A stretch of 64,000 nucleotides of DNA from Elainellaceae cyanobacterium (GTDB taxonomy: Bacteria; Cyanobacteriota; Cyanobacteriia; CAKZMO01). Below the pieces are notes generated by a model. It saw only the letters and a program-made list of their open reading frames with translations. It was not told where the DNA came from and made no database searches. The first letter of the stretch is position 1. Each line of letters opens with the position of its first letter. A program made the position numbers and the translations under genes. Shown one piece after another: positions 3,058 through 19,452 of this stretch. The DNA lies in NCBI GenBank assembly GCA_050330955.1, contig JBHJHJ010000003.1, positions 2,484-66,483 of the forward strand. The letters are read 5' to 3'.

Positions 3058-5802
3058 GTGAGGAGTGCAACTTTGGTCGACGTGCGTTCTATATTGAATT
3101 CTGCTAAATCCGTTGGCAGGCTGCGTCAACGGACCCTGCTGTCTGCGTTCGGCCTGGTTGTGACGACGGCAGGCCTATTAGGGTTAGCTGATTCAGCAGG
3201 GGTTACGCTCCCAACTGCGATCGCCCCAGCCCATGCACTCACGCCTCGCTCCGACGGGTCGGTGCTGGTTCTGCAGTCAGATTCTGGGGAGCCGCTGTCC
3301 GAGGCCTGGCTGGCTGAGCGCTTTGGCTCTGCTGGCGTTAACTATCATCTCATTCGTTGGTCAGACCTCGCTACTGGAGGTGATTTAGGCGACGCATCAT
3401 TCACCCCAGAGACTGCTGCTGGCAGCGAGCCTCCTATTCTATTTCTCCTCAACGCCGAGATGATGTCTCGGCAGCAGATAGGGCTGCTGCGCCGCTTCCT
3501 AGACAGAGGTGGACGGCTCGTGGTTGCGGGGCGTATCGGTTTGGCCTCTTCCGATGCTATTCAGCAGGAGCTGCGATCGCTGCTGGGGGCCTACTGGGCG
3601 TTTCCGCTGCTAGAGCCCGCCCGTGTGGCGCCCGCTGCAGAGAGCGTGCCTAGTAGTGAACACGCGTTGATGGGCGGGGTCGTCGTGCCCCATGGTACCA
3701 ATAGCCAAGTCCTAGCGACCTGGACAGATAGCGCCGGTTCTCAAGATTCGCCAGCCGTTGTCAGAACGGGTCAGGTGCTGTTTTTAGGGTGGGACTGGGG
3801 CGCAGAGACTGACCTACGAATGGACAGCGCTTGGCTTCAGGCATCGGTTCTGCAGTTTGACCATAGCTTTGCTGTCGGGGGACCTGTAGACGATTCCAGC
3901 GATGAGGCTCACGGTACTGAATCAGCGCTTCAGGCTGCTACATCTCAAAGGACAAGATCCGCTCTGTCTGCCCAGGCCCCAAGTGACCAGGCCGCAAATC
4001 AGGAGGTCGTGCAGGAATCAGCGCCTGCGGCTCTTCCTATTTGGCCCCGTGAAGCGAACCTCATGACCCAGGAGCTAGAGAGCCTGATGGGTCGATTCGA
4101 AAGCGCGCTCTTGCTGGCTGAATCAATGGCGCCCTCGCTCAATGCCCAAACCAATGACTCAGTGCTAGTGGCATCGGCGGATTCAATTCAAATTACTGAA
4201 CGCGATGAGCCATCGGCGCTTGACAGACAATATTCTCTTCTAGATCAAGTACAGCGCACGCTAGACGAATTTCCGACGCTGGTGGCCCAGCAAGAGTACG
4301 GCGCTGCGCGTCAGGCTTGGTTTGAGGCCAGGCGCCTCCTGTGGGACAACTTTCCCACCGATAGGCCCGTGGCCCAGCCCGAGATCCGCGCCATCTGGCT
4401 CGACCGGGGGACGATTGTGGCGGCTGAGTCCCATGAGGGTCTGGCCCGTATCTTTGACCAAATTGCCCAGGCCGGCATCAACACCGTCTTCTTTGAAACT
4501 CTTAACGCAGGCTATCCCATCTATCCCAGTGAAGTTGCGCCACAGCGAAACCCGCTGATCTCAGAAGATTGGGATCCGCTGGCGTCTGCAGTAGAGCTAG
4601 CTCACGATCGCGACATCGAAATCCATGCCTGGGTGTGGGTATTCGCAACAGGAAATCAGCGGCACAACACATTGGTAGGCCAGCCATGGGACTATCTCGG
4701 TCCTGTGCTAGAACAGCACCCCAACTGGGCCAACGTAGATCAGCAGGGCAACCCGATTCCGCAGGGACAGACGAAGCCATTTCTAGATCCAGCCAACTCT
4801 GGGGTTCGGCGCTATCTGCTACGGCTCTTTGGCGAGATCCTGACCGAGTACGAGGTGGACGGCCTCCAGCTCGACTACATTCGCTATCCGTTTCAGGACC
4901 CCAGCGCGGGGCGCTCCTACGGCTACGGCACTTCCTCTCGCCGGGCCTTCAAGGCTCAGACCGGCGTTGACCCGGCGACCCTATCCCCCAGCGATCGCGT
5001 CCTGTGGGAGCAGTGGACTGATTTTCGCGTTGAGCAAGTGGATTCCTTTGTCTCGGCGGTCTCTCGCTTAATCGATCGTCGTCGCCCGGAGGCGATTTTA
5101 TCCGCAGCGGTGTTTCCCATGCCGGAGCACGAGCGCCGCCACAAAATCCAGCAGGGTTGGGAGCGCTGGGCCCGCGAGGGCAAAGTGGACATCATTGCCA
5201 CCATGAGCTACGCCATCGACACTCCCCAGCTTCAAGCGCTAGTGGACCCCTGGCTCGATTCCAGTCTGTCTCCAGCGTTGATCCTGCCGGCCATTCGCCT
5301 GCTCAATTTGCCCAATTCGCTGGCGCTGGACCAGATTCAGGCCCTGCGAGATCTGCCCGCTGGCGGGTATGCCCTATTCGCTGCCGAAAACCTGAACCAG
5401 AACGAGGCGCTGCAGCAGGTGTTCCAGCGGACCCAAGGTAGCATTGACGCGCCGGCAATTCCCTATCGAGAGCCCTTTGTAGCGGCGGTTGAGCGGTATG
5501 GGGTGCTGCAGCGAGAGTGGGATGTAGCCCTAGGAAACGGCAGGCTGTATATCGGTTCCCAGCAGCGGGAAGAATTTATGGAGCGGGCGATCGCCCTTGC
5601 TGATGAGCTAGAGGAGCTGTCGGAAGACCCTTCATCTAAAACCATAAGCGGGGCAAGACAAGAGCTCCAGAGCTTCCGCGCTCAGTTTAGCCAGTGGATG
5701 GCGCTGCAGGCTATTAACGGTCGTTATCGTGTTCAGACTTGGGAAAATCGGCTCGCAGCCATTGACAGTCTTTTAGCCTATGGGGAAGACCGTCTTGAGT
5801 AG
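3058..5802 (+). CDS. Large exported protein with a GHL10/DUF187-type glycoside-hydrolase-like domain
   Basis: GTG start and a hydrophobic N-terminal segment. The central/C-terminal TIM-barrel-like region carries motifs of the YngK/GHL10 family (GINTVFFETLNAGYPIYPS..; DIEIHAWVWVFATGN; LQLDYIRYP). Confidence 0.55.
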   Translation: MRSATLVDVRSILNSAKSVGRLRQRTLLSAFGLVVTTAGLLGLADSAGVTLPTAIAPAHALTPRSDGSVLVLQSDSGEPLSEAWLAERFGSAGVNYHLIRWSDLATGGDLGDASFTPETAAGSEPPILFLLNAEMMSRQQIGLLRRFLDRGGRLVVAGRIGLASSDAIQQELRSLLGAYWAFPLLEPARVAPAAESVPSSEHALMGGVVVPHGTNSQVLATWTDSAGSQDSPAVVRTGQVLFLGWDWGAETDLRMDSAWLQASVLQFDHSFAVGGPVDDSSDEAHGTESALQAATSQRTRSALSAQAPSDQAANQEVVQESAPAALPIWPREANLMTQELESLMGRFESALLLAESMAPSLNAQTNDSVLVASADSIQITERDEPSALDRQYSLLDQVQRTLDEFPTLVAQQEYGAARQAWFEARRLLWDNFPTDRPVAQPEIRAIWLDRGTIVAAESHEGLARIFDQIAQAGINTVFFETLNAGYPIYPSEVAPQRNPLISEDWDPLASAVELAHDRDIEIHAWVWVFATGNQRHNTLVGQPWDYLGPVLEQHPNWANVDQQGNPIPQGQTKPFLDPANSGVRRYLLRLFGEILTEYEVDGLQLDYIRYPFQDPSAGRSYGYGTSSRRAFKAQTGVDPATLSPSDRVLWEQWTDFRVEQVDSFVSAVSRLIDRRRPEAILSAAVFPMPEHERRHKIQQGWERWAREGKVDIIATMSYAIDTPQLQALVDPWLDSSLSPALILPAIRLLNLPNSLALDQIQALRDLPAGGYALFAAENLNQNEALQQVFQRTQGSIDAPAIPYREPFVAAVERYGVLQREWDVALGNGRLYIGSQQREEFMERAIALADELEELSEDPSSKTISGARQELQSFRAQFSQWMALQAINGRYRVQTWENRLAAIDSLLAYGEDRLE

Positions 5803-5830
5803 TAGGGGCACATAGCTGTGCGCCCCTACT
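5802..5830 (+). terminator. Stem-loop just after the stop of the 3058-5802 gene
   Basis: Inverted repeat GTAGGGGCACA..TGTGCGCCCCTAC with no clear U-tract, which is common in cyanobacteria. Confidence 0.35.
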
Positions 5831-5862
5831 AGAAGCTAAATTGGCGATGCTAAACAATAAGC

Positions 5863-6156: not shown

Positions 6157-7227
6157 ATGTCGCCCATTGTCTATATCGCGATTACAGACCACGGCTTTGG
6201 CCATGCGACCCGAATGGCTGCTGTTGCAGCGGAGATCCAGCGCCTAAAGCCCGACGTCACCCTGATTTTGGCAACCACTGCCCCCCGATGGCTGCTGGAA
6301 TCTTATATCACCGGAGACTTCATCCATCGTCCTAGAGGGTTTGATGTGGGGGTGGTGCAGAGCGACAGCGTCACTATGGATAAGCCCGCCACCTTGGCTA
6401 AGCTCCAGCAGATTCGCGATCGCCAAGCGGCTGTAGTCGCCAGCGAGGCCGGATTTCTAAAGCAAAATCGCGTCAGCTTAGTTCTAGCCGACATTCCGCC
6501 CCTAGCTGCACCCATTGCTCAGCGGGCCGGGGTGCCCTGCTGGATGGTGAGCAACTTCGGCTGGGATTTCATCTACCGCGCTTGGGGCGGTGAGTTCACT
6601 GCGATCGCCGACTGGATTGCCGATTGCTTTGGCCAGTGCGATCGCCTCTTCCGCTTGCCGTTTCATGAGTCTATGTCCGCCTTTCCACTCATGGAAGATG
6701 TAGGCCTCACAGGAGGCACGCCCCGCTGGTCTGAACCTGAGCTTCGCCAGCGCTTTGACCTTAATCCCGCAGCGGAGAAGACCGTGCTGCTGACCTTTGG
6801 CGGACTGGGGCTGGCCCAAATTCCCTATGACGGCCTACAGCGCTTTGAGGGCTGGCAGTTCATTACTTTCGACCGCACCGCCCCAGACCTGCCCAACCTG
6901 CTCAAGGTCATAGACCGGGGATATCGCCCGGTGGACATGATGCCGCTGTGCGACTGCATCGTGGGCAAGCCCGGCTACAGCACTTTTTCGGAAGCCTGTT
7001 TAAACGATGTCCCAATTATTTCCATCACTCGGGATGGCTTTGCCGAGGCCCCCATTTTGATCGAGGGCATTAAGCAGGTGTCCTATCACCACATTATCTC
7101 TCCTGAGCATCTCATGGACGGAAGCTGGAGCTTTTTAGAGGAGTCGCTGATGCCGCCAGCAACGCAGATTGTTCTGCCCAAAACGGGGAACCAAGCGATC
7201 GCTCAGGCTGTCGTTGAAGCCTGCTAA
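6157..7227 (+). CDS. GT-B fold glycosyltransferase (MGT/GT1-GT28-like)
   Basis: N-terminal ITDHGFGHATR motif, and C-terminal GxPGYSTFSE / nucleotide-sugar-binding-like region. Confidence 0.55.
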   Translation: MSPIVYIAITDHGFGHATRMAAVAAEIQRLKPDVTLILATTAPRWLLESYITGDFIHRPRGFDVGVVQSDSVTMDKPATLAKLQQIRDRQAAVVASEAGFLKQNRVSLVLADIPPLAAPIAQRAGVPCWMVSNFGWDFIYRAWGGEFTAIADWIADCFGQCDRLFRLPFHESMSAFPLMEDVGLTGGTPRWSEPELRQRFDLNPAAEKTVLLTFGGLGLAQIPYDGLQRFEGWQFITFDRTAPDLPNLLKVIDRGYRPVDMMPLCDCIVGKPGYSTFSEACLNDVPIISITRDGFAEAPILIEGIKQVSYHHIISPEHLMDGSWSFLEESLMPPATQIVLPKTGNQAIAQAVVEAC

Positions 7228-7942
7228 TAAGTTGCTAAAGCAGGCGATCGCAAATCGCTTGAGTATCAAGAGCCGATGAAGATTGGCTAAACCGGAACGT
7301 AACTCAGGTCACTTCGGAGCACATGGTAGCTTTACATACTTGCAGCCATGCGTGAAATATGTAAGGGTGTGGGCAAGTACGAACAATCAATATTTTTTGA
7401 TTCAGCTTGATGGGGCTTGAGTTGAAAAGGGTCGTTTACCTGCACATTTAGTCGCCCTGTATCACTAGCCTCCCAAAGGAGCTTTAAAGAAAGAAGGCTT
7501 TCAGAGAAATTACACGCGAAATACATCCCTCTGGAAACATAATCTGAAACGCCGCGTCAATCAACTCGTTACAACATTCAAAATATTCCCGTCAAACGTT
7601 TATGAAGCCATGGAGCAGAGCTGTAGAACTGCGTAAGCCTGCATGCTGCACCTTTGCGCAATGAGCTATGTTGTTCGACGTATGGTGAATGACTTTACTC
7701 TTTAAAACGCCAATAGATGTCCATGGCTTGCCTATAAGTTTTCCGGGAAGAAAGTTTTGCGATACATCATCTAATTAGCGGTTCATTCTACGACCTCTCT
7801 AACAGACGAGTGCGAAAGGAGTAGATTGTACTATTTACAGAATGATGTTTTGTGGTGCCTACCTGACAGACGATTCCAACTTCTATCAGTCTATGAACGA
7901 CTGAATATTTGTCTGTGCACCAACTCATCAGGAATTTAATTC

Positions 7943-10900
7943 ATGCTAGAAACTACAAGTAATCTTCAGTCAACTGGAACAAATATGGCAATGCATAGCT
8001 CAGACATGAACGGTACTCAAACTGTGCTTTGGTCTGATGCTAGCGAGTGGCTGGGCTTTACACCCAAAGATGGAGACGACGTTACGATTCCAACGGGGCT
8101 AAAGGTAATCCTTGATCAAGACACACCAGAGCTTGGAACACTCGCAATAAATGGTATTTTAGAGTTTGATCAAAAAGACCTTAAATTGACGGCTGACAAC
8201 GTGCTCGTTTTTGGTGAAATGGCAGCGGGCAGTGAAGAAAACCCGCACACTCACAAAACAGAAATCGTTCTCACAGGTAAATCGACCGATCCAGACGTAG
8301 TACTGGCCGATTGGATGGGTGAAGGCCATGGCATGCACGACAGCATGGACGGTGGTGAACACGCTAACCACATGACCAGTCCCATCAATAACAAGGCAGT
8401 TATTGTTGCCCCTGGCGGTAAGCTAAATTTGCACGGCGCTGAGGTAGATAGCTGGACTCAGCTGGATTCTACTGCGAATGCTGGCGATACGTCGATTACT
8501 CTTGCCGAAATCCCCGCAGGTTGGAACGTGGGAGATGCGATCGCCATTGCCCCAACTGATTTCAGCGTCTTCGAAGTTGAAGAACGGACTATCGCAAAAA
8601 TTGAGGGCTCTACTGTATTCTTTGAAGAGCCTCTAGAGTATCGTCACTATGGTGAGCAACAAGATTTAGGAAACGGCAAAGTGCTTGACATGCGGGCAGA
8701 GGTAACAAACCTCACCCGAAACATCAGCATCACTGGCTCTGACGAAGGCGAAAGTCAAATTCTAGACACTCAAAGCGAGCATCCAGACTACTATGCCCGC
8801 GCTGGCTATGGCGGCCATACAGTGTATTTAACAGGCGCAGAGGTAAAGATTGATGGTGTTGAATTCAACGGTCTAGGAAATTCAGGGGAATTAGGCAATT
8901 ACCCTGTACACTTCCATCACACAGGCGATGCCAGTGGCTCCTATGTCAAAAACTCATCGGTTCACCATACATTCCAGCGTGGCTTAGTCGTTCATCGGGC
9001 AGACAACCTACTGATTGAAGGCAATACGATCTTCGAAACGATGAGCCACAGCTACTACATTGAAGACGGGGTAGAAACGGGCAATCGATTTGTCGATAAT
9101 TTAGCCATGATGCCGCGTATGACGGCTGAGGCTTTTCGGATTGACAGCGAAAAGAAATCCCCAGAGCGCCCGACGGGCTTTTGGATTACTAACCAAACTA
9201 ATGCTTTTGAGGGGAATCACGCCGTAGGCATTCGAGGGGGCCAAGGCTTCTGGTTTAACGATCCCGACAAAGTTTCGGGCACAGGATTAGCAAGGAAAAA
9301 AGATACGCCGCTGCTTCAGTTTGAGGGAAACACAGCTCATACAATCAATTTCGACCGAGTTGAAGGCTTGGGCTATCCTCCTAAGTGGACAGGAATTGCA
9401 CTTGATATCGGTAAATCGTTCGATAATCATCCAGATAGTGCACCCATCAAAGACTTCACTGCCTGGAAAATCGGAAACATGGGAATTACGATTGGCCACG
9501 GAGATGAAGTAGATATCGAGAATCCGATAATCGCAGAAACGAGGGTATTTCTTCACACCAAGGACGGCGATCCTCTAAAGATTGTCGAGCCAACTTTTGT
9601 CGCCGAAACAGAAAATACTGTTGAGGGACGTGACATTCGCAGTATATTTCCCAATCACCCTAAGCCGGTCATGGTGGAAGCTGCACGACCCACTGAATTG
9701 GTTGACGCTACCATCATCGGCGCAGATCAACTGGTTGAGTCTTCATCGAGACCCAAGCATGAGGGTAATCTAACTGTCACGCTTGCTGAGAGTAATGGCA
9801 CCTCAGAGGAAACCGTAGAAGAGAGCGATACGGCTGAGCCTGCTGACGATGCGGCTGAAAGTCCACAGGATGCCACTTCACTCGATCTCGATAACGAGGA
9901 TATGGCTGCGGACAATGGCGGCGAGATGCAACCCGAGGAGGATTTTGCGTCAGAGATACCCAATTTAGAAACATCAAGCCCCGAAATGCCGTCTTCAGAA
10001 TCCGATAATCCAACAGGAGAAAATGGTTTGATGAAATTTTATCTTATCAATGCTGAGACAAATCAACTCATTAAACCGCTAACTTCGGGCGAGAGTGTTG
10101 ACCCAAATGCGATCGCAGCAAAAGAATTTTCTATCGTTGCAGAGCCCGACGCCGGTGTCTTTAACCAAGTCGGGAGCATCAAATTTTTCCTTAACGGTAA
10201 GGCGGTCAAAACGGAAAATACGCCTCCATATGCCCTGTTCGGCGATAGGAGTGGAGACTTTCATGGAGAGGCGTTCGAAGATGGCGCTTTTACTCTTGAA
10301 GTAGAAGCCTACAGTGGTCCAGACGGGACTGGTGATAAGCTTGTTGCTGCTGAGTTAACTTACGATGTAGCTGTAGGCACACCAGATACTACCGCACCAG
10401 ATTCAGGTAACACGGCGGTAGACACTGACGGCAGTGACCAACCTACTGAAAATCCTGAGCCAGAGGCGCCCAACACTGACGGCGATGCGGTTACAGACGA
10501 AAGCGCTGAGCCGACAGAGGGCGATGTGGATGGCAGCGTGGATATGCCCACCCAGACTGACGGTGAAGCAGGTGGTGCAACCGACGGCGCTGACGATTCG
10601 CCTACTGATGGTTCGCCTACTTCCGAGGTACCTGCTGAACCAGATACCTCAGGGTCAGAATCTGGTGGCGGTTTGAAGCTTTACCTGGTAGATGCCGGCA
10701 CAGATGAAATCATTGAAGAGCTAACCTCTGGCAAGTCCATCGACGCCGATACCACTGGTGCAGACGAGTTTTCCATCATTGCCGTCCCAGACAGCAGCCA
10801 GGTTGAGAGCGTAAAATTCTTCCTCAATGGTCAGGAAGTTAGGACTGAGAATACCCCTCCCTATGCGCTTTTTGGAGATACCGACGGAAACTTCCGTGGG

Positions 10901-13360
10901 GAGCTACTCGAAGATGGCGCCTTTACCGTTGCGGCAGAGGCTTACAGCGGACAAAATGCCACAGGTGAGAAGCTAAGTGAAGTTGAGCTAAGTTATGAAG
11001 TGAGCGGAGCAGCAGCCCCAACCAGCTCTGCCCCGATCGCTGAAACGCCTACAGAAGGCGGCGGCACTCCGACCACTCCAGAAGATGGCATCGACACTGG
11101 GTCTGGCGATCTAGGCGCAGACCCCACCCCGCCCACGACAAACCCCGACGCGCTGGTCAGTCAGTTTGACCACATCGTCTCGCACTTTGATGGCAACAAT
11201 AGAGACACTGACGACATTGCTGCGCTGCCCATCGCGGCTGCCTTAACCAACGCCAGTGGGTTGCAGGATAAGTCAACCTTCTTCTACGGCAACAACATTG
11301 GTGAGCCGAATATCGAGAGACAGGTTGAGGACATGCGCGCCAGCGCGGCGTTTGCCGAGAAGCTGGGGATCAAAACCCACGACTACCAATCTGGATTGAA
11401 TCAAACCACCGATGAGCTGGTGAAAATCTTCAACTCCGGGCAGAAGGTCCTTGTTTTGGAAGGGGGCCGCATGGAAATGACCTATCGGGCCTTCGAGAAG
11501 ACCGATCCAGACAAGATTAAGAACATCACGCTGCTCTCCCACTCCACCAACAACGAAAACTACACCAGAAATGGCAGCCGGACCTGGAGCGATTTGAAGG
11601 CCGACTTCCCGGAGGCCACGTTCATCGATATCGAGAATCAGAATGGGACAAACGATAGAAATGGCTTTAACAGCTCCAAGTGGAACTGGTTGGACAGCAC
11701 CAGTGACCCACTGCTTCAAGAGCTACGAGAGCACATGCTGGAGGCAGGCCGTAAGTACAATGAAGACAAATTCAACGACCCCTCTGATGCGGGTATGCAC
11801 TTCTTCGCCATCACTGGCAATGAGAATGGCGATCCGCTTGACGCAAAAGCTTTCTTAGAGGCTAACCCACCGTCCTTCACTTCCTCCCCACAATCTACAC
11901 CTGTATCTACGCCCGAACCTAGCCCCGAACCCGTACCAGTGCCGACATCCACTGACACAAGCTCAGATTCACTCGTCTTCATGGCTGAAAATGGTCAAGT
12001 GGTTATCGAGGCTGAGAACACCGAGCTGCAGGGCCACTGGACACCCAGAATGGTCGACGGGGAAGACACGGTACTGTGGGATCCGGCTTACAGTAAGGCG
12101 GCACGGGGTGAAGCTGGAGAGACGCTCTCCTACTCGTTTGTCACTGACGAGGCAGGTGATTACAATCTTGCCATGCGCTTCGGACGAGTCAAAGACGCCA
12201 TGAGCGATCGCGACCTACTGGAAAACGGCCAAGAGCGTACTGACACGGGCAACGATTCGTACATCTCACTGATCAACGCAGAGACAGGGGAAGTGATTCA
12301 GGACCAGGTCAAGGCATCGACTTACCTAGGCAGGTCTGACGAGGAGCTCAAGTGGGGAACCACCATTTCTGTCAATCACCAGAAATCGCCAGCGACGTTC
12401 AAGCTGGATGCGAACACCGAGTATCGCCTAGAGGTTACTGGCCGCTCGGATGGCTATGCCCTAGACCGAATTACCCTCAGCACTGATGGATTCCTCACTG
12501 ATGCAAACGTCCCTCAGTCGAGTACTCAGGTTGGTGCGAACGACACTGCTGTGCTGTCGTCCGGCCCGGCTAGTGCATCACCTGCTTTGTCCACTGTTGA
12601 GTCAGTCTCTCCTGAGTTCTCTGATTCGAACAGCGATTTCGCTGCAAGCGAACTCTCGCAGGAGGTACTAGAGCTTACCAACGCGTTCCGGGCCAAGAAT
12701 GGTCTTGCTCCCCTATCGCTCAATCAAGACCTCACCGAAGCGGCCCAAGACCATGTGCAAGATATGGCCGAGGGAGATTTCTTCAGCCATACCGGCCTGG
12801 ATGAGTCCACCATCGTTGACCGGGTTCAGGAAGCCGGATACATGCCTCAAACTGTGGGTGAGAACATTGCTGCGGGACAAATCACGGCAGAAGAGGTTGT
12901 GCAGGCCTGGATTGACAGCCCTGGCCACCGGGCTAATCTACTCAACGACCAGTTCACTGAGATTGGCATTGGCTACGCGTTCCTAGAGAACGACACGGGC
13001 AGCGTCAACTACAACCACTACTGGGGACAGGCCTTTGGGCAGAGTAGCGAGGCGAGTGACTTTGGCGCAGTACCTCAGAGCAGCGGCGATTTTGTCCGCG
13101 CCATGGCTGAGGCTGGGTTCAGCGGCGGCATGGGCTCGATGGGTGATGCTACTGGTGGTGGACAGACCTCAACCTTTGAGAGCAGCTATGGTCTAGCAAA
13201 TCTTGAGAGTGCAAGCGAACTTCAGGGTGCTGAGCTGTTCAGCGTCTCTGAAGGCATCGGTAACCAGACCGAAACGCATCAAGATGAACTGACGGCAGCG
13301 CATATCTGTGGAACCATGGCGGCATTCCCCATGCCTGAGGTAGACAGCCTGGCTGCCTAA
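7943..13360 (+). CDS. Giant (1805 aa) multidomain extracellular-type protein: G8 domain, parallel beta-helix, acidic linkers, 2 tandem repeat domains, CBM-like domain, C-terminal CAP (SCP/PR-1, YkwD-like) domain
   Basis: Single uninterrupted ORF. N-terminal G8-like pattern (W..W..P..GDDVTIP..LKVILD..LGTL.INGILEF). PbH1-like repeats (NSSVHHTFQRGLVVHRADNLLIEGNTIFET). Two ~110-aa repeats (..KFFLNG..VKTENTPPYALFGD..). CAP signature at the C-terminus (GHRANLL..; YWGQAFG). No N-terminal signal peptide is seen. GC is visibly lower than in the flanking genes. Confidence 0.8.
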   Translation: MLETTSNLQSTGTNMAMHSSDMNGTQTVLWSDASEWLGFTPKDGDDVTIPTGLKVILDQDTPELGTLAINGILEFDQKDLKLTADNVLVFGEMAAGSEENPHTHKTEIVLTGKSTDPDVVLADWMGEGHGMHDSMDGGEHANHMTSPINNKAVIVAPGGKLNLHGAEVDSWTQLDSTANAGDTSITLAEIPAGWNVGDAIAIAPTDFSVFEVEERTIAKIEGSTVFFEEPLEYRHYGEQQDLGNGKVLDMRAEVTNLTRNISITGSDEGESQILDTQSEHPDYYARAGYGGHTVYLTGAEVKIDGVEFNGLGNSGELGNYPVHFHHTGDASGSYVKNSSVHHTFQRGLVVHRADNLLIEGNTIFETMSHSYYIEDGVETGNRFVDNLAMMPRMTAEAFRIDSEKKSPERPTGFWITNQTNAFEGNHAVGIRGGQGFWFNDPDKVSGTGLARKKDTPLLQFEGNTAHTINFDRVEGLGYPPKWTGIALDIGKSFDNHPDSAPIKDFTAWKIGNMGITIGHGDEVDIENPIIAETRVFLHTKDGDPLKIVEPTFVAETENTVEGRDIRSIFPNHPKPVMVEAARPTELVDATIIGADQLVESSSRPKHEGNLTVTLAESNGTSEETVEESDTAEPADDAAESPQDATSLDLDNEDMAADNGGEMQPEEDFASEIPNLETSSPEMPSSESDNPTGENGLMKFYLINAETNQLIKPLTSGESVDPNAIAAKEFSIVAEPDAGVFNQVGSIKFFLNGKAVKTENTPPYALFGDRSGDFHGEAFEDGAFTLEVEAYSGPDGTGDKLVAAELTYDVAVGTPDTTAPDSGNTAVDTDGSDQPTENPEPEAPNTDGDAVTDESAEPTEGDVDGSVDMPTQTDGEAGGATDGADDSPTDGSPTSEVPAEPDTSGSESGGGLKLYLVDAGTDEIIEELTSGKSIDADTTGADEFSIIAVPDSSQVESVKFFLNGQEVRTENTPPYALFGDTDGNFRGELLEDGAFTVAAEAYSGQNATGEKLSEVELSYEVSGAAAPTSSAPIAETPTEGGGTPTTPEDGIDTGSGDLGADPTPPTTNPDALVSQFDHIVSHFDGNNRDTDDIAALPIAAALTNASGLQDKSTFFYGNNIGEPNIERQVEDMRASAAFAEKLGIKTHDYQSGLNQTTDELVKIFNSGQKVLVLEGGRMEMTYRAFEKTDPDKIKNITLLSHSTNNENYTRNGSRTWSDLKADFPEATFIDIENQNGTNDRNGFNSSKWNWLDSTSDPLLQELREHMLEAGRKYNEDKFNDPSDAGMHFFAITGNENGDPLDAKAFLEANPPSFTSSPQSTPVSTPEPSPEPVPVPTSTDTSSDSLVFMAENGQVVIEAENTELQGHWTPRMVDGEDTVLWDPAYSKAARGEAGETLSYSFVTDEAGDYNLAMRFGRVKDAMSDRDLLENGQERTDTGNDSYISLINAETGEVIQDQVKASTYLGRSDEELKWGTTISVNHQKSPATFKLDANTEYRLEVTGRSDGYALDRITLSTDGFLTDANVPQSSTQVGANDTAVLSSGPASASPALSTVESVSPEFSDSNSDFAASELSQEVLELTNAFRAKNGLAPLSLNQDLTEAAQDHVQDMAEGDFFSHTGLDESTIVDRVQEAGYMPQTVGENIAAGQITAEEVVQAWIDSPGHRANLLNDQFTEIGIGYAFLENDTGSVNYNHYWGQAFGQSSEASDFGAVPQSSGDFVRAMAEAGFSGGMGSMGDATGGGQTSTFESSYGLANLESASELQGAELFSVSEGIGNQTETHQDELTAAHICGTMAAFPMPEVDSLAA

Positions 13361-13424
13361 TTCAAGAGCCTGAGGAAGGTGCTTCCTTGTACTAAAAGGC
13401 GATCGCCTTCTGATTTTTGACAGC

Positions 13425-13460
13425 GTGAGCCCCCCTCTAGCGGATTAGAGGGGGGCTCAC
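13425..13460. promoter_or_regulatory. Perfect 15-bp-stem hairpin between the giant gene and phnI
   Basis: GTGAGCCCCCCTCTA gcggat TAGAGGGGGGCTCAC. A TTGACA hexamer lies just upstream at about 13414. It could be a terminator for the giant gene and/or a regulatory structure for the phn-like operon. Confidence 0.4.
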
Positions 13461-13542
13461 GTCGTAAAGTAGTAGTCATCCCGTGACATCTCAAATGCGA
13501 TGACACAATAGACATACATCCCCAACACCCTCCCGCCAACCC

Positions 13543-14706
13543 ATGCCCTACGTAGCCGTCAAAGGTGGCGATCGCGCCATACAAAACGCTGAGGCTCTGC
13601 TCAAGGCCCGCCGCCGCGGGGATACTAGCGTACCCGAGCTATCCCTAAAACAAATTAAGCAGCAGATGCACCTGGCCATAAATCGGGTCATGGCCGAGGG
13701 CAGCCTCTACGACCCGGACTTAGCGGCCCTGGCTATCAAGCAATCCTGGGGCGATTTAGTGGAAGCCGCTTTCCTCCTGCGGGCCTACCGCACCACCCTG
13801 CCGCGCCTCTACTACAGCCAGTCGCTAGACACCAGCCAAATGCACCTACAGCGGCGCATCTCAGCAATATTTAAAGACGCCCCCGGCGGCCAGATGCTAG
13901 GCCCTACCTTCGACTATGTGCATCGCCTATTGGACTTCAAGCTAGCGGCGGAAGGAAATGCTGCTGTGCCGCCCAGAACAGGCACCGCCTCAAACGGGGC
14001 TACCCCCCGCGTCGCCGATATCCTGCGGCAAGAGGACCTGATTCAGCCCGCCGCAGCGCCGCAGGAGTCAACGCCCTTCGACCTCACCCGCCATTCTCTC
14101 ACCACCCCTACCCGCCGAGACGCGCGGCTGCAAAACCTAGCCCGAGCCGACGAGGGCTTCTTGCTGGGGCTGGCCTACTCCACCCAGCGGGGCTACGGCA
14201 AAAACCATCCCTTCGCTGGGGAGATTCGCGTAGGAGAAGTGGAGGTGGTGCTCTGCCCCGAGGAGCTGGGGTTTGAGGTGGCGATCGCCGACATCACAGT
14301 AACCGAGGTGCAGATGGTGAACCAATTTACGGGCAACAAGGATACCCCGCCCCAGTTCACCCAGGGCTACGGCCTCACCTTTGGCTACACCGCGCGCAAG
14401 GCCATGGCTATGGCGCTAGTGGACCGGGCGCTGCAGGCTAAAGACCTGGGAGAAGCGATAGATGGTCCCGCCCAGGACGAGGAGTTTGTGCTCTACCACT
14501 CCGACAATGTAGAGGCCCAAGGTTTTGTACAGCACCTGAAGCTGCCCCACTACATCGATTTTCAGGCGGAGCTGAACGTGGTGCGCAAGATGCGGGCGGA
14601 CCACAACACCCAAAGTACCGGTGCCGTTCCGAGTAACGGCGATGCCCAAAGCAACAACGAGCTGGCAAAAGCGGCTCCCTACGACGGCGTGGAGTTCTTC
14701 GTGTGA
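13543..14706 (+). CDS. phnI: Carbon-phosphorus lyase complex subunit PhnI
   Basis: Near-colinear match to E. coli PhnI (MPYVAVKGGDRAIQNAEALL..RRRGDTSVPELS..; ..GEIRVGEVEVVLCPEELGFEV..; MAMALVDRALQA..AQDEEFVLYHSDNVEAQGFVQHLKLPHYIDFQAEL). Confidence 0.9.
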   Translation: MPYVAVKGGDRAIQNAEALLKARRRGDTSVPELSLKQIKQQMHLAINRVMAEGSLYDPDLAALAIKQSWGDLVEAAFLLRAYRTTLPRLYYSQSLDTSQMHLQRRISAIFKDAPGGQMLGPTFDYVHRLLDFKLAAEGNAAVPPRTGTASNGATPRVADILRQEDLIQPAAAPQESTPFDLTRHSLTTPTRRDARLQNLARADEGFLLGLAYSTQRGYGKNHPFAGEIRVGEVEVVLCPEELGFEVAIADITVTEVQMVNQFTGNKDTPPQFTQGYGLTFGYTARKAMAMALVDRALQAKDLGEAIDGPAQDEEFVLYHSDNVEAQGFVQHLKLPHYIDFQAELNVVRKMRADHNTQSTGAVPSNGDAQSNNELAKAAPYDGVEFFV

Positions 14707-15608
14707 TGCCTGATCCAACCCCCAAAGTACGGGCGAATGGCCATTCGCCCCGACCGGCTACCGCTACTACTGAACCCGGCTTCAACTTCGCCTACCTCGA
14801 CGAGCAAACCAAGCGCTCCATCCGCCGCGCCTTGCTCAAAGCCATTGCCATTCCCGGCCACCAGATCCCCTTCGGCTCTCGGGAGATGCCCATGCCCTAC
14901 GGCTGGGGCACCGGCGGCATCCAGGTCACCGCCTCAGTGATTGGCCAGACCGACATCTTCAAAGTGATCGACCAGGGGGCTGACGACACCACCAACGCCG
15001 TCAACATCCGCCGCTTCTTCCAAAAGGTATGCGGCGTCGAGACCACCGAACGCACCGAAGAGGCCACGCTGCTCCAAACCCGCCACCGCATCCCCGAAAC
15101 GCCGCTACGGGAAGGTCAAACGGTGGTGTACCAGGTGCCCATGCCCGAGCCCCTGTTCTTCATCGAGCCCTCTCGCACCGAGGCCAGCAAGATGCACGCC
15201 CTAGAAGAATACGGCCCCGTCTACGTGCGGCTCTACGAAGACATCACCCAGTACGGCCACATCGCCATGGCCTACGACTATCCCGTGGTGGTGCACGATC
15301 GCTACCTGATGAAGCCCAGCCCCATTCCCCGCTTCGACAACCCCAAGATGCATATGAGTCCGGCACTGCAGCTGTTCGGAGCGGGGCGGGAAAAGCGCAT
15401 CTACGCGGTGCCGCCCTACACCTCAGTGAAGAGTCTGGATTTTGAGGACTACCCGTTCACGGTAGAGCGCTGGGATAAGCCCTGCGCCATTTGTGGCTCG
15501 ACGGAGAGCTACCTAGATGAAGTGGTGACCGACGACCAGGGCGGTCGCATGTGGATCTGCTCGGATACGGACTACTGCAGCCAGCGACAGTCGAACGCTC
15601 CAGATTAG
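14706..15608 (+). CDS. phnJ: C-P lyase PhnJ (alpha-D-ribose-1-methylphosphonate-5-phosphate C-P lyase, radical SAM-like 4-Cys)
   Basis: FNFAYLDEQTKRSIRRALLKAIAIPGHQIPFGSREMPMPYGWGTGGIQ.., and the C-terminal Cys cluster CAICGSTESYLDEVV..ICSDTDYC. The ATG overlaps the phnI stop (TGATG). Confidence 0.9.
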   Translation: MPDPTPKVRANGHSPRPATATTEPGFNFAYLDEQTKRSIRRALLKAIAIPGHQIPFGSREMPMPYGWGTGGIQVTASVIGQTDIFKVIDQGADDTTNAVNIRRFFQKVCGVETTERTEEATLLQTRHRIPETPLREGQTVVYQVPMPEPLFFIEPSRTEASKMHALEEYGPVYVRLYEDITQYGHIAMAYDYPVVVHDRYLMKPSPIPRFDNPKMHMSPALQLFGAGREKRIYAVPPYTSVKSLDFEDYPFTVERWDKPCAICGSTESYLDEVVTDDQGGRMWICSDTDYCSQRQSNAPD

Positions 15609-15663
15609 GCGATACTTGAGAGAGCTTATTTGGCTAGCCCCTCCTGTAAATTTGTCGGATGCA

Positions 15664-16344
15664 ATGAGTCCACTCCTGCGAGCCCATCGCCTCCACAAGC
15701 GATTTATTCTGCACAACCACGGTACCGAAATCCCGGTGCTGGCAGGTACCAGCCTCACCGTAGAGGCGGGAGAATGCATTGCGCTGCAGGGCCCCTCAGG
15801 CTCCGGTAAATCTACCTTTATGCGATCGCTCTACGGCAACTATCGCGTTGACAGCGGCTCAGTGTGGGTCAGGCATGAAGATAAGTGGGTTGACATTCCC
15901 CAATTGCCTCCCCACGAACTGATCGCGGTGCGGCGGAGATCTTTGGGCTACGTCAGTCAGTTTCTGCGGGTGATTCCTCGGGTGCCGGCGCTGGACGTGG
16001 CCGCTGAACCGCTTGTCGCTTGGGGCGCCCCGCTGGAGGAGGCCCGTGAGCGAGTCGCCTGCCTGTTCGCCCAGCTCAATCTGCCGCGGCGGCTGTGGAT
16101 GCTGTCCCCCACCACCTTTTCCGGTGGGGAGAAGCAGCGGGTCAACATTGCCCGAGCTCTCGCGGTGCCCTACCCGGTGCTGCTGCTAGATGAACCCACT
16201 TCCGCCCTAGATGACGCCAACCGAGAGGTGGTCATTCGCCTGATGGAAGCCCGCCGCGCCCAGGGCTCTGCCTTGGTGGGCATTTTTCACGATCAGGCGG
16301 TGCGCGATCGCGTCTGTAACCGAACCTTAACGTTTGAAGGTTAG
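15664..16344 (+). CDS. phnL: C-P lyase pathway ABC-type ATPase PhnL
   Basis: Walker A GPSGSGKST, then WVDIP, then VSQFLRVIPRV, then signature FSGGEKQRVNIARAL, then LLLDEPTSALD, then GIFHD. This is the PhnL pattern, not PhnK. Start taken at MSPLLRAHRLHKRF. Confidence 0.85.
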   Translation: MSPLLRAHRLHKRFILHNHGTEIPVLAGTSLTVEAGECIALQGPSGSGKSTFMRSLYGNYRVDSGSVWVRHEDKWVDIPQLPPHELIAVRRRSLGYVSQFLRVIPRVPALDVAAEPLVAWGAPLEEARERVACLFAQLNLPRRLWMLSPTTFSGGEKQRVNIARALAVPYPVLLLDEPTSALDDANREVVIRLMEARRAQGSALVGIFHDQAVRDRVCNRTLTFEG

Positions 16345-16351
16345 AGTGATC

Positions 16352-17509
16352 ATGATCACAGCTCCAGCGACTATGACAGAACAGGTTCTGACCAACTATC
16401 GTCTGCAGCTCCCCGACCAAGAGGTGTTGGGTAGCCTGGTGGTGCGCGATGGCCGCATCGCCGACATTCAGCCCGGCGCAGTTTCCCAGGGGCAAGACGG
16501 GGGCGGGGATTACCTGCTGCCAGGCTTTGTGGAGCTGCACACCGACAATCTAGAGCAGTGTATGTCGCCTCGGCCCAGCGTGATGTGGCCGATGGACATG
16601 GCTGTGGTGCACCACGACCGGGAGCTGGCGGGGGCAGGCATCACAACGGTGTGTGACGCGATCGCCATCGGGGACGTGCTGCCCAACTCGGTGCGTATGA
16701 CCCAGTTCGATCCTATGATCGACGCCCTCAGCGGGGCGCAGCAGGCCGGACGCTTGGCGGTGGATCACCGCCTGCACCTGCGGTGTGAGCTGGGCTATGA
16801 AAACACCCACGACATTGTTGAGCGCTACGCCACCCACCCCCTGCTGACCCTGATGTCCCTGATGGACCACACGCCGGGGCAGCGCCAGTTTGCCAAAGTG
16901 GAGAAATACAAGGCGTATTATGTGGGTAAACACGGGGTCAGCCCCGAAGAAATGGACGACTTTATCCAAAAGCGCATCGAAGATCAGCGGCTTCACGCCC
17001 AGACCAACCGGCAGAAGCTGGCGCGGCTTGCTCGCACCCACGACATTGCTCTTGCGAGCCACGACGACGCCACGGTGGACCACGTGCAAGAGGCCATCGA
17101 TGACGGCGCGGCGATCGCCGAGTTTCCGACGACGCTGGACGCAGCTAAATCCGCCCACCGCCACGGCCTACAGATTTTGATGGGGGCTCCCAACTTAGTG
17201 CTGGGGGGCTCCCAATCGGGGAACGTCTCAGCGATGACGCTGATCGAGCACGGGCTAGTGGACTTGATTTCCTCAGACTATGTGCCCCAGAGCCTGCTGC
17301 AGGCGGTTTTTGTCATTGCCCAGCGTGGGGTGCTGCCTCTGCATGACGCGGTGAAGCTGGTGACCCTCAACCCCGCGAAAGCGATTGAGCTGGATGGCGA
17401 TCGCGGCAGCCTCGCGGTTGGCAAGCGGGCAGATTTTATCACCGTGCACCACGACGGCACCGTGCCCAGACTCACTAGCGTCAGCCGACAGGGAAGGCGT
17501 ATTGCCTGA
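16352..17509 (+). CDS. phnM: PhnM (ribose-1-methylphosphonate-5-triphosphate diphosphatase, amidohydrolase fold)
   Basis: LLPGFVELHTDNLE, ITTVCDAIAIGDV, HRLHLRCE, LMDHTPGQRQF, ALASHDDAT, EFPTT, and MGAPNLVLGGSQSGNVSA all align with E. coli PhnM. It is translationally coupled to phnL. Confidence 0.85.
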   Translation: MITAPATMTEQVLTNYRLQLPDQEVLGSLVVRDGRIADIQPGAVSQGQDGGGDYLLPGFVELHTDNLEQCMSPRPSVMWPMDMAVVHHDRELAGAGITTVCDAIAIGDVLPNSVRMTQFDPMIDALSGAQQAGRLAVDHRLHLRCELGYENTHDIVERYATHPLLTLMSLMDHTPGQRQFAKVEKYKAYYVGKHGVSPEEMDDFIQKRIEDQRLHAQTNRQKLARLARTHDIALASHDDATVDHVQEAIDDGAAIAEFPTTLDAAKSAHRHGLQILMGAPNLVLGGSQSGNVSAMTLIEHGLVDLISSDYVPQSLLQAVFVIAQRGVLPLHDAVKLVTLNPAKAIELDGDRGSLAVGKRADFITVHHDGTVPRLTSVSRQGRRIA

Positions 17510-17522
17510 CTCTAAACCAGTT

Positions 17523-18116
17523 TTGAGCTCAGACCCATCTCCATCAGGCTTCTCTGGCGCCGACGGCGATACGCTAATACCGCTGATTCTTTACGCCTGC
17601 CCCACTGGCCCGCTGGCCCAGCAGCTTGAGGTGTACTTTGAGCGCAGTCGGGTCCGCTATGGCCCCAATAAGGCCCATGCCTATATGCCTCACTGCACCC
17701 TAACCGGCTTTTTCCACGACGGGGCAGTCACCATTTCGGCCTATCTGCGCGCGATCGATGCGGCTCTAAACCAGCTGGAGCCCCCGCCGCGCCCCGTAGC
17801 CCGCGTGAGCGCGATGGCCTTCCATGCAGATTGGCACGGGCTTGTGGTCGAAGCGCCCTGGCTCAAGCGGCTAACGGCTCAGTTTGCTGAACTGGCGCCC
17901 TCGCCGCCCAATGAGGCACTGCGGCTTAAAGACTGGCTTCACGTCAGCCTGGCCTACGGGTTTGACCCAGCCCAGAATAATGACCTGCGCGAGCTGGCTC
18001 AGGCCCTAGTTGACCCTGAGACCCCCGCCGGCTGGGAGCTTCGGTTCTACCAGCGTCAGTCCGCTTGGATATGCCAGCAGAGCTGGACCCTCGAAGATAC
18101 GTTTCAACAGCAGTAA
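17523..18116 (+). CDS. 2H-family (LigT/CPDase-like) cyclic phosphodiesterase
   Basis: Two H-x-T/S-x motifs at the expected spacing (MPHCTLTGFF ... LHVSLAYGF). The ORF-track start at 17385 overlaps phnM in another frame. The true start is probably the TTG at 17523 or a nearby alternative, so it remains uncertain. Confidence 0.5.
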   Translation: MSSDPSPSGFSGADGDTLIPLILYACPTGPLAQQLEVYFERSRVRYGPNKAHAYMPHCTLTGFFHDGAVTISAYLRAIDAALNQLEPPPRPVARVSAMAFHADWHGLVVEAPWLKRLTAQFAELAPSPPNEALRLKDWLHVSLAYGFDPAQNNDLRELAQALVDPETPAGWELRFYQRQSAWICQQSWTLEDTFQQQ

Positions 18117-18139
18117 ACCCTAAACCAGGATTTTTCGCA

Positions 18140-18718
18140 ATGATTACGATCGATACCCTCATGATCACCCTCCGCGACCGGGGCGGCAGCCAATACGGCA
18201 GTGAGTCGGTGACCTACCTGGAGCATGCGTTGCAATGTGCCGCCCTCGCTCAGCAGAACAGTGAGTCGGACGCTCTGGTCGCAGCTTGCCTGCTCCACGA
18301 CATTGGACATATGCTGCACGAGCTTGGGGAAGACGTCGCACAGCAGGGGATCAATGACCGCCACGAACATCTGGCGCCGCGCTATCTCGCTTCCCTGTTT
18401 GGCCCAGCGGTCACCGAGCCGATTCGGCTTCACGTTCAGGCCAAGCAATATCTGTGCGCCATCAACAAGCGGTATTGGGACTCCCTCTCGCCAGCATCAC
18501 AAACGAGCCTAGAGCTGCAGGGGGGCATATTCTCCAAGGCCGACGCGAAGCGATTTATCTATCAGCGCTACGCCCCCGACGCCGTGAAGCTCCGTCTTTG
18601 GGATGATCAGGCTAAGGTCAGCGGACACAAAACCCCTGGTTTGGATCACTTTTTACCTGTCTTGCAGGCCTGTTACCTGTGCGATCGCGCCCATCAAAGT
18701 GCTCCTCTGGCGCTCTAG
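18140..18718 (+). CDS. HD-domain protein of the phosphonate-operon-associated clade (PhnZ-like, Phn_HD)
   Basis: YLEHALQCAALAQ..ACLLHDIGH HD motif in a ~190-aa protein, and its placement directly after phn genes. Start taken at MITIDTLMITL rather than the overlapping upstream start. Confidence 0.6.
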   Translation: MITIDTLMITLRDRGGSQYGSESVTYLEHALQCAALAQQNSESDALVAACLLHDIGHMLHELGEDVAQQGINDRHEHLAPRYLASLFGPAVTEPIRLHVQAKQYLCAINKRYWDSLSPASQTSLELQGGIFSKADAKRFIYQRYAPDAVKLRLWDDQAKVSGHKTPGLDHFLPVLQACYLCDRAHQSAPLAL

Positions 18719-19147
18719 CTACCATAGACCAAGCTGGATACGTGCCCTTGCGTTTGAAATCTGCTTTAAGATTATTTCAAACACAAGACTTTTGTATTGC
18801 ATGTACTGCTGAAAAGTGCTACCTTAGCTGACGGTGTTTTTCTGTCGGTGGTCTTTGCGGTGACCTTTGCTGCGCTATGTCGCTGGGGTTATGTGTAGGG
18901 TAGCCGGTACCGGTAAGTTGAAAATGTTCGACAGTCTTGCCGCTGTATCAGTCGGGTGTATGGCGATGCTCAATCGCTCGTGAGGTTCAAGTGAGATGAG
19001 GGGCGGAGTCAGTCCACCGCTCTTTCCACAAATCATGCAGAATTGCTATAGATAGCCTTGTGGTGACCATAGCACTGGTTTTGCTGAGCGGTTGTGAACA
19101 ATTCGGTGAATTCTCAGGTTAGGATTTCTATCTATATCGATTGATTT

Positions 19148-19417: not shown

Positions 19418-19452
19418 AACTCAAGGTCGGACTCAATGCTGATCCCACAGGT

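Follow-up and report, generated by a model that had tools for sequence, protein, structure and literature searches.

The gene at positions 7943–13360 (+) of a 64,000-nucleotide stretch of an Elainellaceae cyanobacterium genome (assembly GCA_050330955.1, contig JBHJHJ010000003.1; the whole stretch is called the window below) is best explained, with a reasonable degree of probability, as encoding an exported modular chimera that possesses two glycan-processing modules and lies in a rearranged locus. The first module is a G8 domain with a right-handed parallel β-helix, related to vertebrate CEMIP and TMEM2, and the second is an α/β domain of about 240 amino acids (aa) with a nucleoside-hydrolase-like fold, which was overlooked in an earlier note made on this DNA from the sequence alone. 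In the best-supported reading, the product would process polysaccharide with its two modules, either after secretion or exposed on the surface of a filamentous (Leptolyngbya-like) member of the Elainellaceae that produces sheath or exopolysaccharide (EPS).

As the earlier note had claimed, the gene is a single uninterrupted open reading frame (ORF) of 1805 aa; it begins at the first possible start after an in-frame stop, and no upstream extension is possible. The deduced protein has a mass of 193 kDa and a pI of 4.17 and contains one Cys. A 100% identical NCBI entry from a metagenome-assembled genome (MAG), P0001, starts at Met22 and is named [quoted passage not shown]. The protein is a member of the G8/CEMIP_beta-hel and CAP superfamilies and is not an RTX protein. 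It is a unique domain combination within a known, uncharacterised family of proteins that are probably extracellular and active on polysaccharides, and the gene appears to have been assembled by domain shuffling.

The G8/β-helix core

In the full protein, Pfam assigned G8 (PF10162) to aa 39–174 (80.8 bits, cutoff 22.9) and CEMIP_beta-hel (PF24606) to aa 289–468 (154.1 bits, cutoff 27.3), and the TMEM2 ectodomain (PDB 8c6i) was matched by sequence at 5e-28. The AlphaFold2 model of aa 1–640 is almost all β, with disordered ends (predicted local distance difference test (pLDDT) 87, predicted template-modelling score (pTM) 0.88), and the top Foldseek match of the β-helix was 8c6i_A (E 3e-24, query template-modelling score (TMq) 0.67). 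The G8/parallel β-helix architecture and the kinship with CEMIP/TMEM2 proposed earlier are thus supported by Pfam, by sequence, and by a confident structure prediction whose closest fold is that of TMEM2. The next fold matches were phage capsule depolymerases, K1 capsule lyase, GH110, GH87, and GH141, and further ones included PL6 alginate lyases, AlgG, and fucoidan lyase; after TMEM2, the significant matches were almost all polysaccharide lyases, hydrolases, epimerases, or phage capsule depolymerases. PDB 4nk6, which we take to belong with the Azotobacter AlgE mannuronan C5-epimerases and the AlgG-type β-helix enzymes, was also among them. In AlgE, a β-helix catalytic module acts on the exopolysaccharide of the producer itself and is exported by the type I pathway without a Sec signal. 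The likeness to AlgE and AlgG is one of fold, with no sequence homology beyond it, and the RTX R-modules of AlgE are not found here.

An alignment of 36 sequences, consisting of the query and 35 homologues, two of them amphibian CEMIP/CEMIP2-like proteins, revealed polar residues that are invariant in 36/36 sequences: Y320, H323, H325, H351, E374, E378, N386, N420, and N425. These residues fall within the motifs GxYPVHFH, RGxxxH, GHxxFxEDGVExxN, and FWIxNxxN, which are common to vertebrate CEMIP (KIAA1199/HYBID) and CEMIP2 (TMEM2) and the cyanobacterial protein, and further invariant columns are G96, W194, L257, G290, and G312. In vertebrate CEMIP and CEMIP2, as here, G8 is part of one continuous right-handed β-helix. 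On the other hand, the GG/PANDER-like lectin domains (PF15711, PF24605) of the vertebrate matches P0051–P0055 were not found by Pfam in the cyanobacterial protein, which also lacks the signal peptide or type II membrane anchor of CEMIP/TMEM2 and carries extra nucleoside-hydrolase-like, carbohydrate-binding module (CBM)-like, and CAP modules. Since it possesses neither the lectin insertions nor an anchor or signal, it is not a CEMIP/TMEM2 orthologue, and hyaluronan, whose depolymerisation is disputed even for TMEM2, would hardly be expected to serve as its substrate in a cyanobacterial mat. Whether the vertebrate fold is catalytic is still argued. Because the His/Glu/Asn constellation is invariant from cyanobacteria to vertebrates, the lectin-free bacterial proteins are a possible model for the active-site question in CEMIP/TMEM2, and a compact bacterial member would be an easy target for expression.

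Bacterial G8/CEMIP_beta-hel relatives are numerous, with 65 relatives listed across cyanobacteria, Proteobacteria, and eukaryotes. Many β-helix homologues carry RTX repeats, and others carry secretion or wall-anchoring modules of the Bacteroidota type (Por_Secre_tail) or the Gram-positive type (CW_binding_2). The G8 and β-helix core of the bacterial RTX proteins of this family (e.g., P0005–P0013) is 45–63% identical to that of the present protein, and these proteins also share its long upstream intergenic region; the homologues P0002–P0004 likewise lack a signal peptide. In contrast, HemolysinCabind repeats and a type I tail form the C-terminal end of the bacterial G8/RTX proteins; the present protein lacks both and possesses instead its own tail, together with the nucleoside-hydrolase-like, CBM-like, and CAP modules. 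In Cyanothece sp. SIO1E1, two tandem G8/β-helix/RTX paralogues, one of 1509 aa and one of 1044 aa that reaches the contig end, lie behind a 1.2-kb gap (L086 4611–12355).

The nucleoside-hydrolase-like domain

The α/β domain has no Pfam match at E<0.1 and is an undescribed family with no Pfam entry; a literature search on it found nothing. A total of 44 homologues were collected, and the closest are proteins of 244–450 aa, three of which carry CBM_2 or Malectin. The family has 15 invariant columns, including D14, G15, N16, D21, D22, H131, N135, Q164, N165, S212, and D213 (domain numbering). The AlphaFold2 model reached a pLDDT of 88.9, and the best PDB matches in Foldseek were the nucleoside hydrolases 4i71, 4kpn, and 3b9g (probability ~1.0, template-modelling (TM) score 0.43–0.48). 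In the model, the invariant D14, N16, D21, and D22 occupy the loop that follows strand 1 and the first part of helix 1. At this topological position, nucleoside hydrolases possess the DxDxxxDD calcium/ribose site.

The domain differs from nucleoside hydrolases in several respects. Its sequence identity to the inosine-uridine-preferring and IAG nucleoside hydrolases is only 12–14%, its motif D-G-N-N-x-D-x-D-D is spaced differently from DxDxxxDD, and it does not belong to the IU_nuc_hydro profile (PF01156). A profile of 34 homologues searched against the PDB retrieved no solved relative and no nucleoside hydrolase, and thus the resemblance is at the level of the fold only. Furthermore, the secretion of family members and their fusion to CBMs point to a glycan, and not to a nucleoside, as the substrate. 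The domain is a probable second catalytic module. Its repeated fusion to carbohydrate-binding modules and G8 β-helices makes it a candidate for a new family of carbohydrate-active enzymes.

Fusion of the two modules and relatives

Fusion of the β-helix with the nucleoside-hydrolase-like domain was observed in three independent proteins and in two orders. The present protein and P0003 follow the order β-helix, Ig, Ig, nucleoside-hydrolase-like domain, and P0002 possesses the nucleoside-hydrolase-like domain, Ig, β-helix, and RTX. The GH115_C-like sandwich adjoins the nucleoside-hydrolase-like domain in P0128 and P0132, and the reverse order is found in L090. These repeated fusions in different orders are good evidence that the β-helix, the nucleoside-hydrolase-like domain, and the sandwich share a substrate, and the CBM fusions and the fold neighbours point to a polysaccharide. 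P0128 was not counted as a stand-alone Ig–Ig/nucleoside-hydrolase-like/CBM protein because its frame runs off the contig end.

No database protein combines all of the modules besides P0001, which is the same protein and the sole one to cover more than 72% of the query. In the Joint Genome Institute (JGI) metagenomes, no orthologue with the same architecture was found, and the sole match was a protein with a CBM-like and a nucleoside-hydrolase-like domain. For the part that starts with the CBM-like module, the closest relative is P0110 of another Elainellaceae MAG, GCA_050331615.1 (L087 6432–7991; 58% identity), whose gene has a third-codon-position GC (GC3) of 0.635. P0110 contains only the first ~30 residues of the nucleoside-hydrolase-like domain (FDGNHNDKDD), followed by the sandwich, CAP, and a long acidic repeat tail of the DAGTDGGMD type, and its sequence suggests descent from a nucleoside-hydrolase-like/CBM/CAP gene by internal deletion. 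The individual parts are common and the combination is a one-off; the gene is a singleton in a MAG that NCBI had already called and named, and its practical impact is modest at present.

Proposed function

In the proposed mechanism, the β-helix and the nucleoside-hydrolase-like domain would act as two glycan-processing modules that cleave or modify the same extracellular polysaccharide, most likely a cyanobacterial sheath polysaccharide or exopolysaccharide, and the β-sandwich and Ig-like modules would target and space the two catalytic modules. A bolder version of this proposal, to which we give a low probability, is that the two domains are the catalytic halves of an unrecognised bacterial system for cutting or remodelling exopolysaccharide, possibly a sulfated one. 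The locus of P0002 may hint at the substrate class: it is a glycosyltransferase/sulfotransferase cluster with other Pect-lyase-fold genes, and the gene of P0003 adjoins a CBM6/CBM35/Pect-lyase-fold protein. In the former (L003 8237–18001), a Pect-lyase-fold gene, three GT4, one GT2, and a sulfotransferase were observed, and this region is, by gene content, a candidate sulfated-EPS cluster. In the window itself, the genes upstream of the leader, one for a GHL10-family protein and one resembling a glycosyltransferase by motif only, also fit a polysaccharide context.

Several points weigh against this reading. The fold match of the nucleoside-hydrolase-like domain is moderate (TM ~0.45), and, as described above, its family profile found no relative in the PDB. 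Bacterial G8 proteins are not known to have enzymatic activity; the claim that this domain mix has not been characterised in bacteria agrees with literature searches in which no characterised bacterial or cyanobacterial G8 protein was found. Homologues mostly sit in unrelated gene neighbourhoods, and no neighbour is common to the window and the homologue loci among the nine loci compared. Finally, for the TMEM2 ectodomain, whose structure is solved, hyaluronidase activity was not measurable and an active site was not assignable (PMC10206443), and therefore the β-helix could be a binding scaffold.

This last result leads to the alternative that the protein is a non-enzymatic surface adhesin or matrix scaffold whose modules bind glycans or cells and cleave nothing, with roles in sheath organisation, filament adhesion, or attachment to gliding slime. 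Adhesins typically possess long acidic linkers and Ig-like spacers, and a catalytic role of CAP domains is not established in bacteria, the NCBIfam matches of the present one being sub-threshold. We nevertheless regard an adhesin as unlikely. The His/Glu/Asn constellation on the β-helix is invariant from cyanobacteria to vertebrates, the invariant Asp/Asn/His cluster of the second domain sits where nucleoside hydrolases have their metal and active site, and both sets look less like binding surfaces than like sites of catalysis or metal binding; among the structural neighbours of the β-helix, moreover, almost all are enzymes.

Composition and probable origin of the gene

The region 7228–13360, which comprises the gene and its leader, has a GC content of 0.509 compared with 0.570 in the rest of the window, and no other 6.1-kb stretch of the window is as low in GC. 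The AT-rich island of the earlier note is thus real, but its extent must be revised: low GC is limited to the leader (GC 0.428) and codons 1–1048 (GC3 0.453), and codons 1049–1805 have a GC3 of 0.629, near that of 40 other long ORFs in the window (0.68 ± 0.06). Nor are the neighbours uniformly near 60% GC, as had been stated, since flanking GC ranges from 0.55 to 0.62. A sliding GC3 scan gave 0.38–0.54 up to about codon 1050 and 0.53–0.75 beyond it, and the maximum-likelihood single change point lies at codon 1048 (about nt 11087). Its likelihood ratio (LR) is 54.8, against a maximum of 13.8 over 300 permutations; it is the largest step in the window and sits in the linker between Ig-like module 2 and the nucleoside-hydrolase-like domain. 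Codon usage followed the same boundary. The codon log-likelihood under window usage is −1.285 per codon for the first 1050 codons, below all 39 other genes (minimum −1.244), and −1.161 per codon thereafter, compared with a gene mean of −1.116 (sd 0.086). The β-helix region of P0004, from a 56%-GC cyanobacterium, has a GC3 of ~0.6, and the low GC3 is therefore not intrinsic to this domain.

Since GC3 and codon usage are atypical only in the leader and the first 58% of the gene, the gene looks like a compositional chimera and not like a single imported cassette. When GC and codon usage are computed within the window, the horizontal acquisition suggested previously is compatible with the 5′ portion and the leader and not with the remaining, near-typical 3′ block. 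Only the leader and the G8/β-helix/Ig–Ig block look recently imported, and the 3′ block from the nucleoside-hydrolase-like domain to CAP is probably resident. The leader and codons 1–1048 may have been acquired recently from a lower-GC cyanobacterium and fused, inside a low-complexity linker, to the block of near-typical codon usage that encodes the nucleoside-hydrolase-like domain, the β-sandwich, and CAP. HIP1 octamers (GCGATCGC), which occur 90 times in the window and thereby identify the host as a cyanobacterium, are present at 8537 and 10109 inside the low-GC block; together with the cyanobacterial nearest homologues, this suggests that the donor was probably a cyanobacterium and not a distant organism.

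The same two HIP1 sites also count against a recent import, and so do other findings. Three other long genes of the window show smaller internal GC3 steps (LR 10–35), and an insertion is not marked by an integrase, a tRNA, or direct repeats on its flanks; the flanking repeats of the region are short and at chance level, the 64-kb window contains no tRNA, and the closest recombinase gene is 43 kb off. Tetranucleotide usage is atypical across the whole gene, which is rich in low-complexity linkers, and hence also in the 3′ block (r = 0.49; a short low-complexity segment). An alternative is therefore that the whole gene is native and old and that the low GC3 of codons 1–1048 reflects local mutational or selective heterogeneity, such as expression-linked codon choice or repeat-driven evolution. 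The HIP1 octamers, the internal steps of other genes, and the borders devoid of mobility genes, tRNA, or direct repeats are compatible with it, as is the identical domain order of P0003 through the nucleoside-hydrolase-like domain, by which the junction is not new as an architecture. However, this sharp step, which no other in the window exceeds, coincides exactly with an inter-domain linker; AT-richness is still higher in the adjoining 715-bp leader, every other window gene has a higher codon-usage likelihood than the 5′ block, the same domain has typical GC3 in a genome of similar GC, and the locus is clearly rearranged, with loss of phnG/H. A native origin of the whole gene is therefore considered improbable.

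A far less probable alternative is an artefact of metagenome assembly in which reads of two cyanobacterial populations were joined in the linker, so that the 1805-aa protein would not be real. It is true that the sequence is from a MAG, that the change point falls within a low-complexity Pro/Thr/Gly/Asp-rich linker, and that the full architecture occurs in no second database sequence, only P0001 itself covering more than 72%, and has no orthologue in the metagenome scan. Such an artefact, however, would require two junctions because the DNA upstream of the leader is host-typical (GC 0.57–0.59; HIP1 at 7195 and 7244). The reading frame is also intact over 5.4 kb, and P0003, from a Logan assembly of an independent sample, shows the same succession of β-helix, two Ig modules, and nucleoside-hydrolase-like domain. 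With an imported 5′ block as the favoured origin, the locus is a clean case of exon-like domain shuffling in cyanobacterial exoproteins, with the composition step exactly at a linker, and it cautions that the boundary of an “island” can fall inside a gene.

Remaining modules of the protein

The coordinates of all features are listed in Table 1. Two acidic linkers and a duplicated module of ~110 aa had been noticed previously, and both were recovered. Linker 1 contains 29% Asp+Glu and 1% Lys+Arg over aa 632–700, with pLDDT <50 from aa 619, and linker 2 is similarly acidic; the two Ig-like modules, of ~105 aa each, are 56% identical. Pfam Big_7 matches Ig-like module 2 weakly (25.9 bits, cutoff 24.1), the repeat modules of P0002 and P0059 align to Ig-like module 1, and similar modules were seen in P0003 and P0128. 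The CBM-like module anticipated earlier corresponds to GH115_C at aa 1345–1517, an assignment that is weak in that it reaches 19.2 bits in the full protein and exceeds the cutoff of 24.1 only when the segment is scanned alone (27.8 bits).

The CAP domain (PF00188, aa 1576–1696) is assigned with 94.8 bits (cutoff 21.1, 8e-27) and matches PDB 4ifa at 3e-17. It had been described as C-terminal, and the domain itself is upheld, but it is not terminal because a 105-aa tail follows it. It remains below the NCBIfam cutoffs (TIGR02909 (YkwD spore subfamily), 97.2 bits vs 171; NF052539 (DalA), 73.3 vs 200). Hundreds of cyanobacterial CAP proteins are 50–70% identical to this domain. Like the present protein, the “SCP-like extracellular” or YkwD-type proteins among them (P0110, P0113, P0145) have no signal peptide, and the cyanobacterial CAP proteins often possess acidic low-complexity or RTX C-termini; in contrast to the present protein, they are 260–600 aa long and none carries a G8 β-helix.

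Table 1. Features of the gene and its flanks, with positions in the window
Feature	Residues (aa)	Position	Strand	Basis
Leader, 715-bp AT-rich intergenic region (GC 0.428), presumed promoter and 5′ untranslated region		7228..7942	+	
G8 and right-handed parallel β-helix	27–617	8021..9793	+	Pfam, AlphaFold2, Foldseek
Acidic disordered linker 1	618–695	9794..10027	+	Composition, low pLDDT
Ig-like module 1	696–812	10028..10378	+	Internal repeat
Acidic linker 2	813–910	10379..10672	+	28% Asp+Glu over aa 826–938
Ig-like module 2	911–1022	10673..11008	+	Big_7, internal repeat
Linker 3, Pro/Thr/Gly-rich, holding the change point at codon 1048		11009..11152	+	GC3 scan, codon likelihood
α/β domain with nucleoside-hydrolase-like fold	1071–1312	11153..11878	+	AlphaFold2, Foldseek
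GH115_C-like (CBM-like) β-sandwich	1343–1516	11969..12490	+	Pfam
CAP/SCP (YkwD-like) domain	1568–1700	12644..13042	+	Pfam, PDB
Acidic Gly/Ser/Thr-rich tail of 105 aa, candidate uncleaved export signal		13043..13357	+	Composition
Hairpin, 17-bp perfect GC-rich inverted repeat (I1) between the stop codon of the gene and phnI		13423..13462	+	

Probable export of the protein

No hydrophobic segment is found at the N-terminus, where the maximum Kyte–Doolittle value (window 15) in the first 80 aa is 0.84, which agrees with the absence of a signal peptide claimed earlier, and no hydrophobic or transmembrane segment is found anywhere in the protein (maximum Kyte–Doolittle (19) of 1.08). Since every module belongs to extracytoplasmic families, export of the protein is strongly suggested by analogy with its relatives. 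Distant homologues of the nucleoside-hydrolase-like domain possess clear N-terminal signal peptides, and RTX repeats are present in many of the cyanobacterial CAP relatives; in P0113 and P0002, RTX is followed by a typical type I C-terminal region. The whole chain may leave the cell without a Sec signal, most plausibly by a type I pathway composed of ATP-binding cassette (ABC), membrane fusion protein (MFP), and TolC-like components that would read the C-terminal region. The protein shows traits of type I substrates, namely no Sec/Tat signal, an acidic pI (4.17), and a single Cys in 1805 aa.

The C-terminal type I-like signal proposed in the earlier note is consistent with the acidic, Gly-rich composition of the tail (14% Gly, 14% Asp+Glu, 1% Lys+Arg) and with the RTX-bearing relatives, and in other respects it fares less well. 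The tail has no Pfam match and resembles one protein only, the C-terminus of P0004 (42% over 85 aa); HMMER over 1.84e9 representatives gave P0004 alone, by which a family-wide sorting signal was ruled out. The tail instead looks, by sequence comparison, like the degenerate last strands of a β-sandwich domain present in P0004 and apparently, by eye, in P0003. Likewise unfavourable to type I export, the 1805-aa protein contains no GGxGxD or GxGxD repeats and no PF00353, and the search for secretion genes, run within the 64-kb window, retrieved no HlyB-, HlyD-, or TolC-like gene by Pfam among 26 ORFs (including all of at least 360 aa, minus two inside or overlapping longer assigned ORFs). With no RTX, no signal peptide, no type I gene in the window, and a nearly private tail, type I-like export is therefore deduced only from relatives, and we assign it tentatively, at chances approaching even.

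Export by another route, such as type IV pilus-associated secretion, release by vesicles or lysis, or a tail-anchored state in which the protein is not released, appears somewhat unlikely. The missing repeats, transporter genes, and family-wide tail motif are in line with it, as are the related cyanobacterial proteins P0110, P0111, and P0132, which have neither a signal peptide nor RTX. On the other hand, P0002 and P0113, close relatives of the β-helix and CAP modules, end in RTX and a type I region, the acidic pI and near-absence of Cys suit type I substrates, and type I genes are usually unlinked to their substrates.

Leader and 3′ end

The upstream gene ends at 7227, leaving a gap of 715 bp before the large gene. 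The ORF-free character of this leader was confirmed, with no ORF longer than 64 aa on either strand of 7228–7942, and the T-rich string ttttttgattcagcttgatgggg quoted from it is present. The leader contains no sigma-70 consensus site, gave no Rfam match at E≤1, shows no excess structure over shuffled sequence in its folding energy (z = −0.85), and does not resemble the sequence upstream of homologous genes. A regulatory RNA or a pseudogene in the leader was ruled out by the lack of an Rfam match, of excess structure, and of leader similarity, and tblastn detected no phnG/phnH remnants in it. Six homologous genes of other organisms likewise have long upstream gaps (404–1221 bp).

Downstream of the gene, the hairpin at 13423–13462 has a ΔG of −42.8 kcal/mol (z = −6.5), and 0/200 shuffles were as stable. 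It lacks a U tract and is probably a terminator or a stabiliser of the RNA 3′ end. Because this strong hairpin probably ends the transcript, the large gene looks like a monocistronic, separate transcription unit.

The phn junction and the gene neighbourhood

The gene lies right upstream of the phn cluster, as stated in the earlier note, with phnI starting 183 bp downstream, followed by phnJ, one ABC ATPase, phnM, and an HD protein. The position had been taken as a hint to the origin and function of the gene, but it appears incidental: neither the gene nor its upstream neighbours occur at other cyanobacterial phnI loci (0/80, the nearest of which are only 67–80% identical in PhnI), and a functional link to phosphonate metabolism was ruled out on this ground. 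The junction is informative in another way. In relatives, phnG–phnH directly precede phnI at 14/14 loci inspected, some of which have an extra ORF of ~130–190 aa between phnG–phnH and phnI, acetyltransferase-like in two translated cases. Both phnK and phnL follow phnJ in 4/4 loci mapped in detail, and the gene order of relatives is phnG-H-(extra ORF)-I-J-K-L-M. Neither phnG, phnH, nor phnK was found anywhere in the 64-kb window. Since phnG/phnH directly precede phnI in relatives and are absent here, the junction 13360–13543 marks a rearrangement breakpoint, and the placement beside phnI could be a by-product of the rearrangement that also removed phnG/phnH.

The phn cluster (13543–18718) is incomplete and may be split or decaying. 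It also holds a 243-aa ORF. Relatives encode two ABC ATPases, and the single one found here most resembles the second of them and is thus phnL-like. Directly upstream of the leader, a 356-aa protein (6157–7227) carries an N-terminal GFGHATR motif that is reminiscent, by motif only, of GT1/GT28 glycosyltransferases; Pfam gave no match at E≤1e-3, and none of the loci compared holds a counterpart of it. Further upstream, a GHL10-family protein with a hydrophobic N-terminal segment resembling a signal peptide is encoded, and a palindrome with 16-nt arms and no spacer (5800–5831; TAGTAGGGGCACATAG/CTGTGCGCCCCTACTA) lies exactly at the stop codon of its gene.

A second low-GC stretch (18500–23000, GC 0.46–0.55) includes a response-regulator/PAS adenylate cyclase and a GDP-mannose 4,6-dehydratase; the ORFs 23035–23901 and 23901–25385 on its 3′ side have no Pfam match. 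At 56777–58213 (−), a large serine recombinase (Resolvase, Recombinase, and zinc ribbon) is encoded, which could mark a mobile or developmentally excised element. Finally, positions 29862–32762 encode a 966-aa glyoxal-oxidase/galactose-oxidase-like protein (Kelch, GO-like E-set) whose gene shows a GC3 step near codon 103, from 0.52 to 0.80, and which is probably another large exported protein with a mosaic 5′ end.

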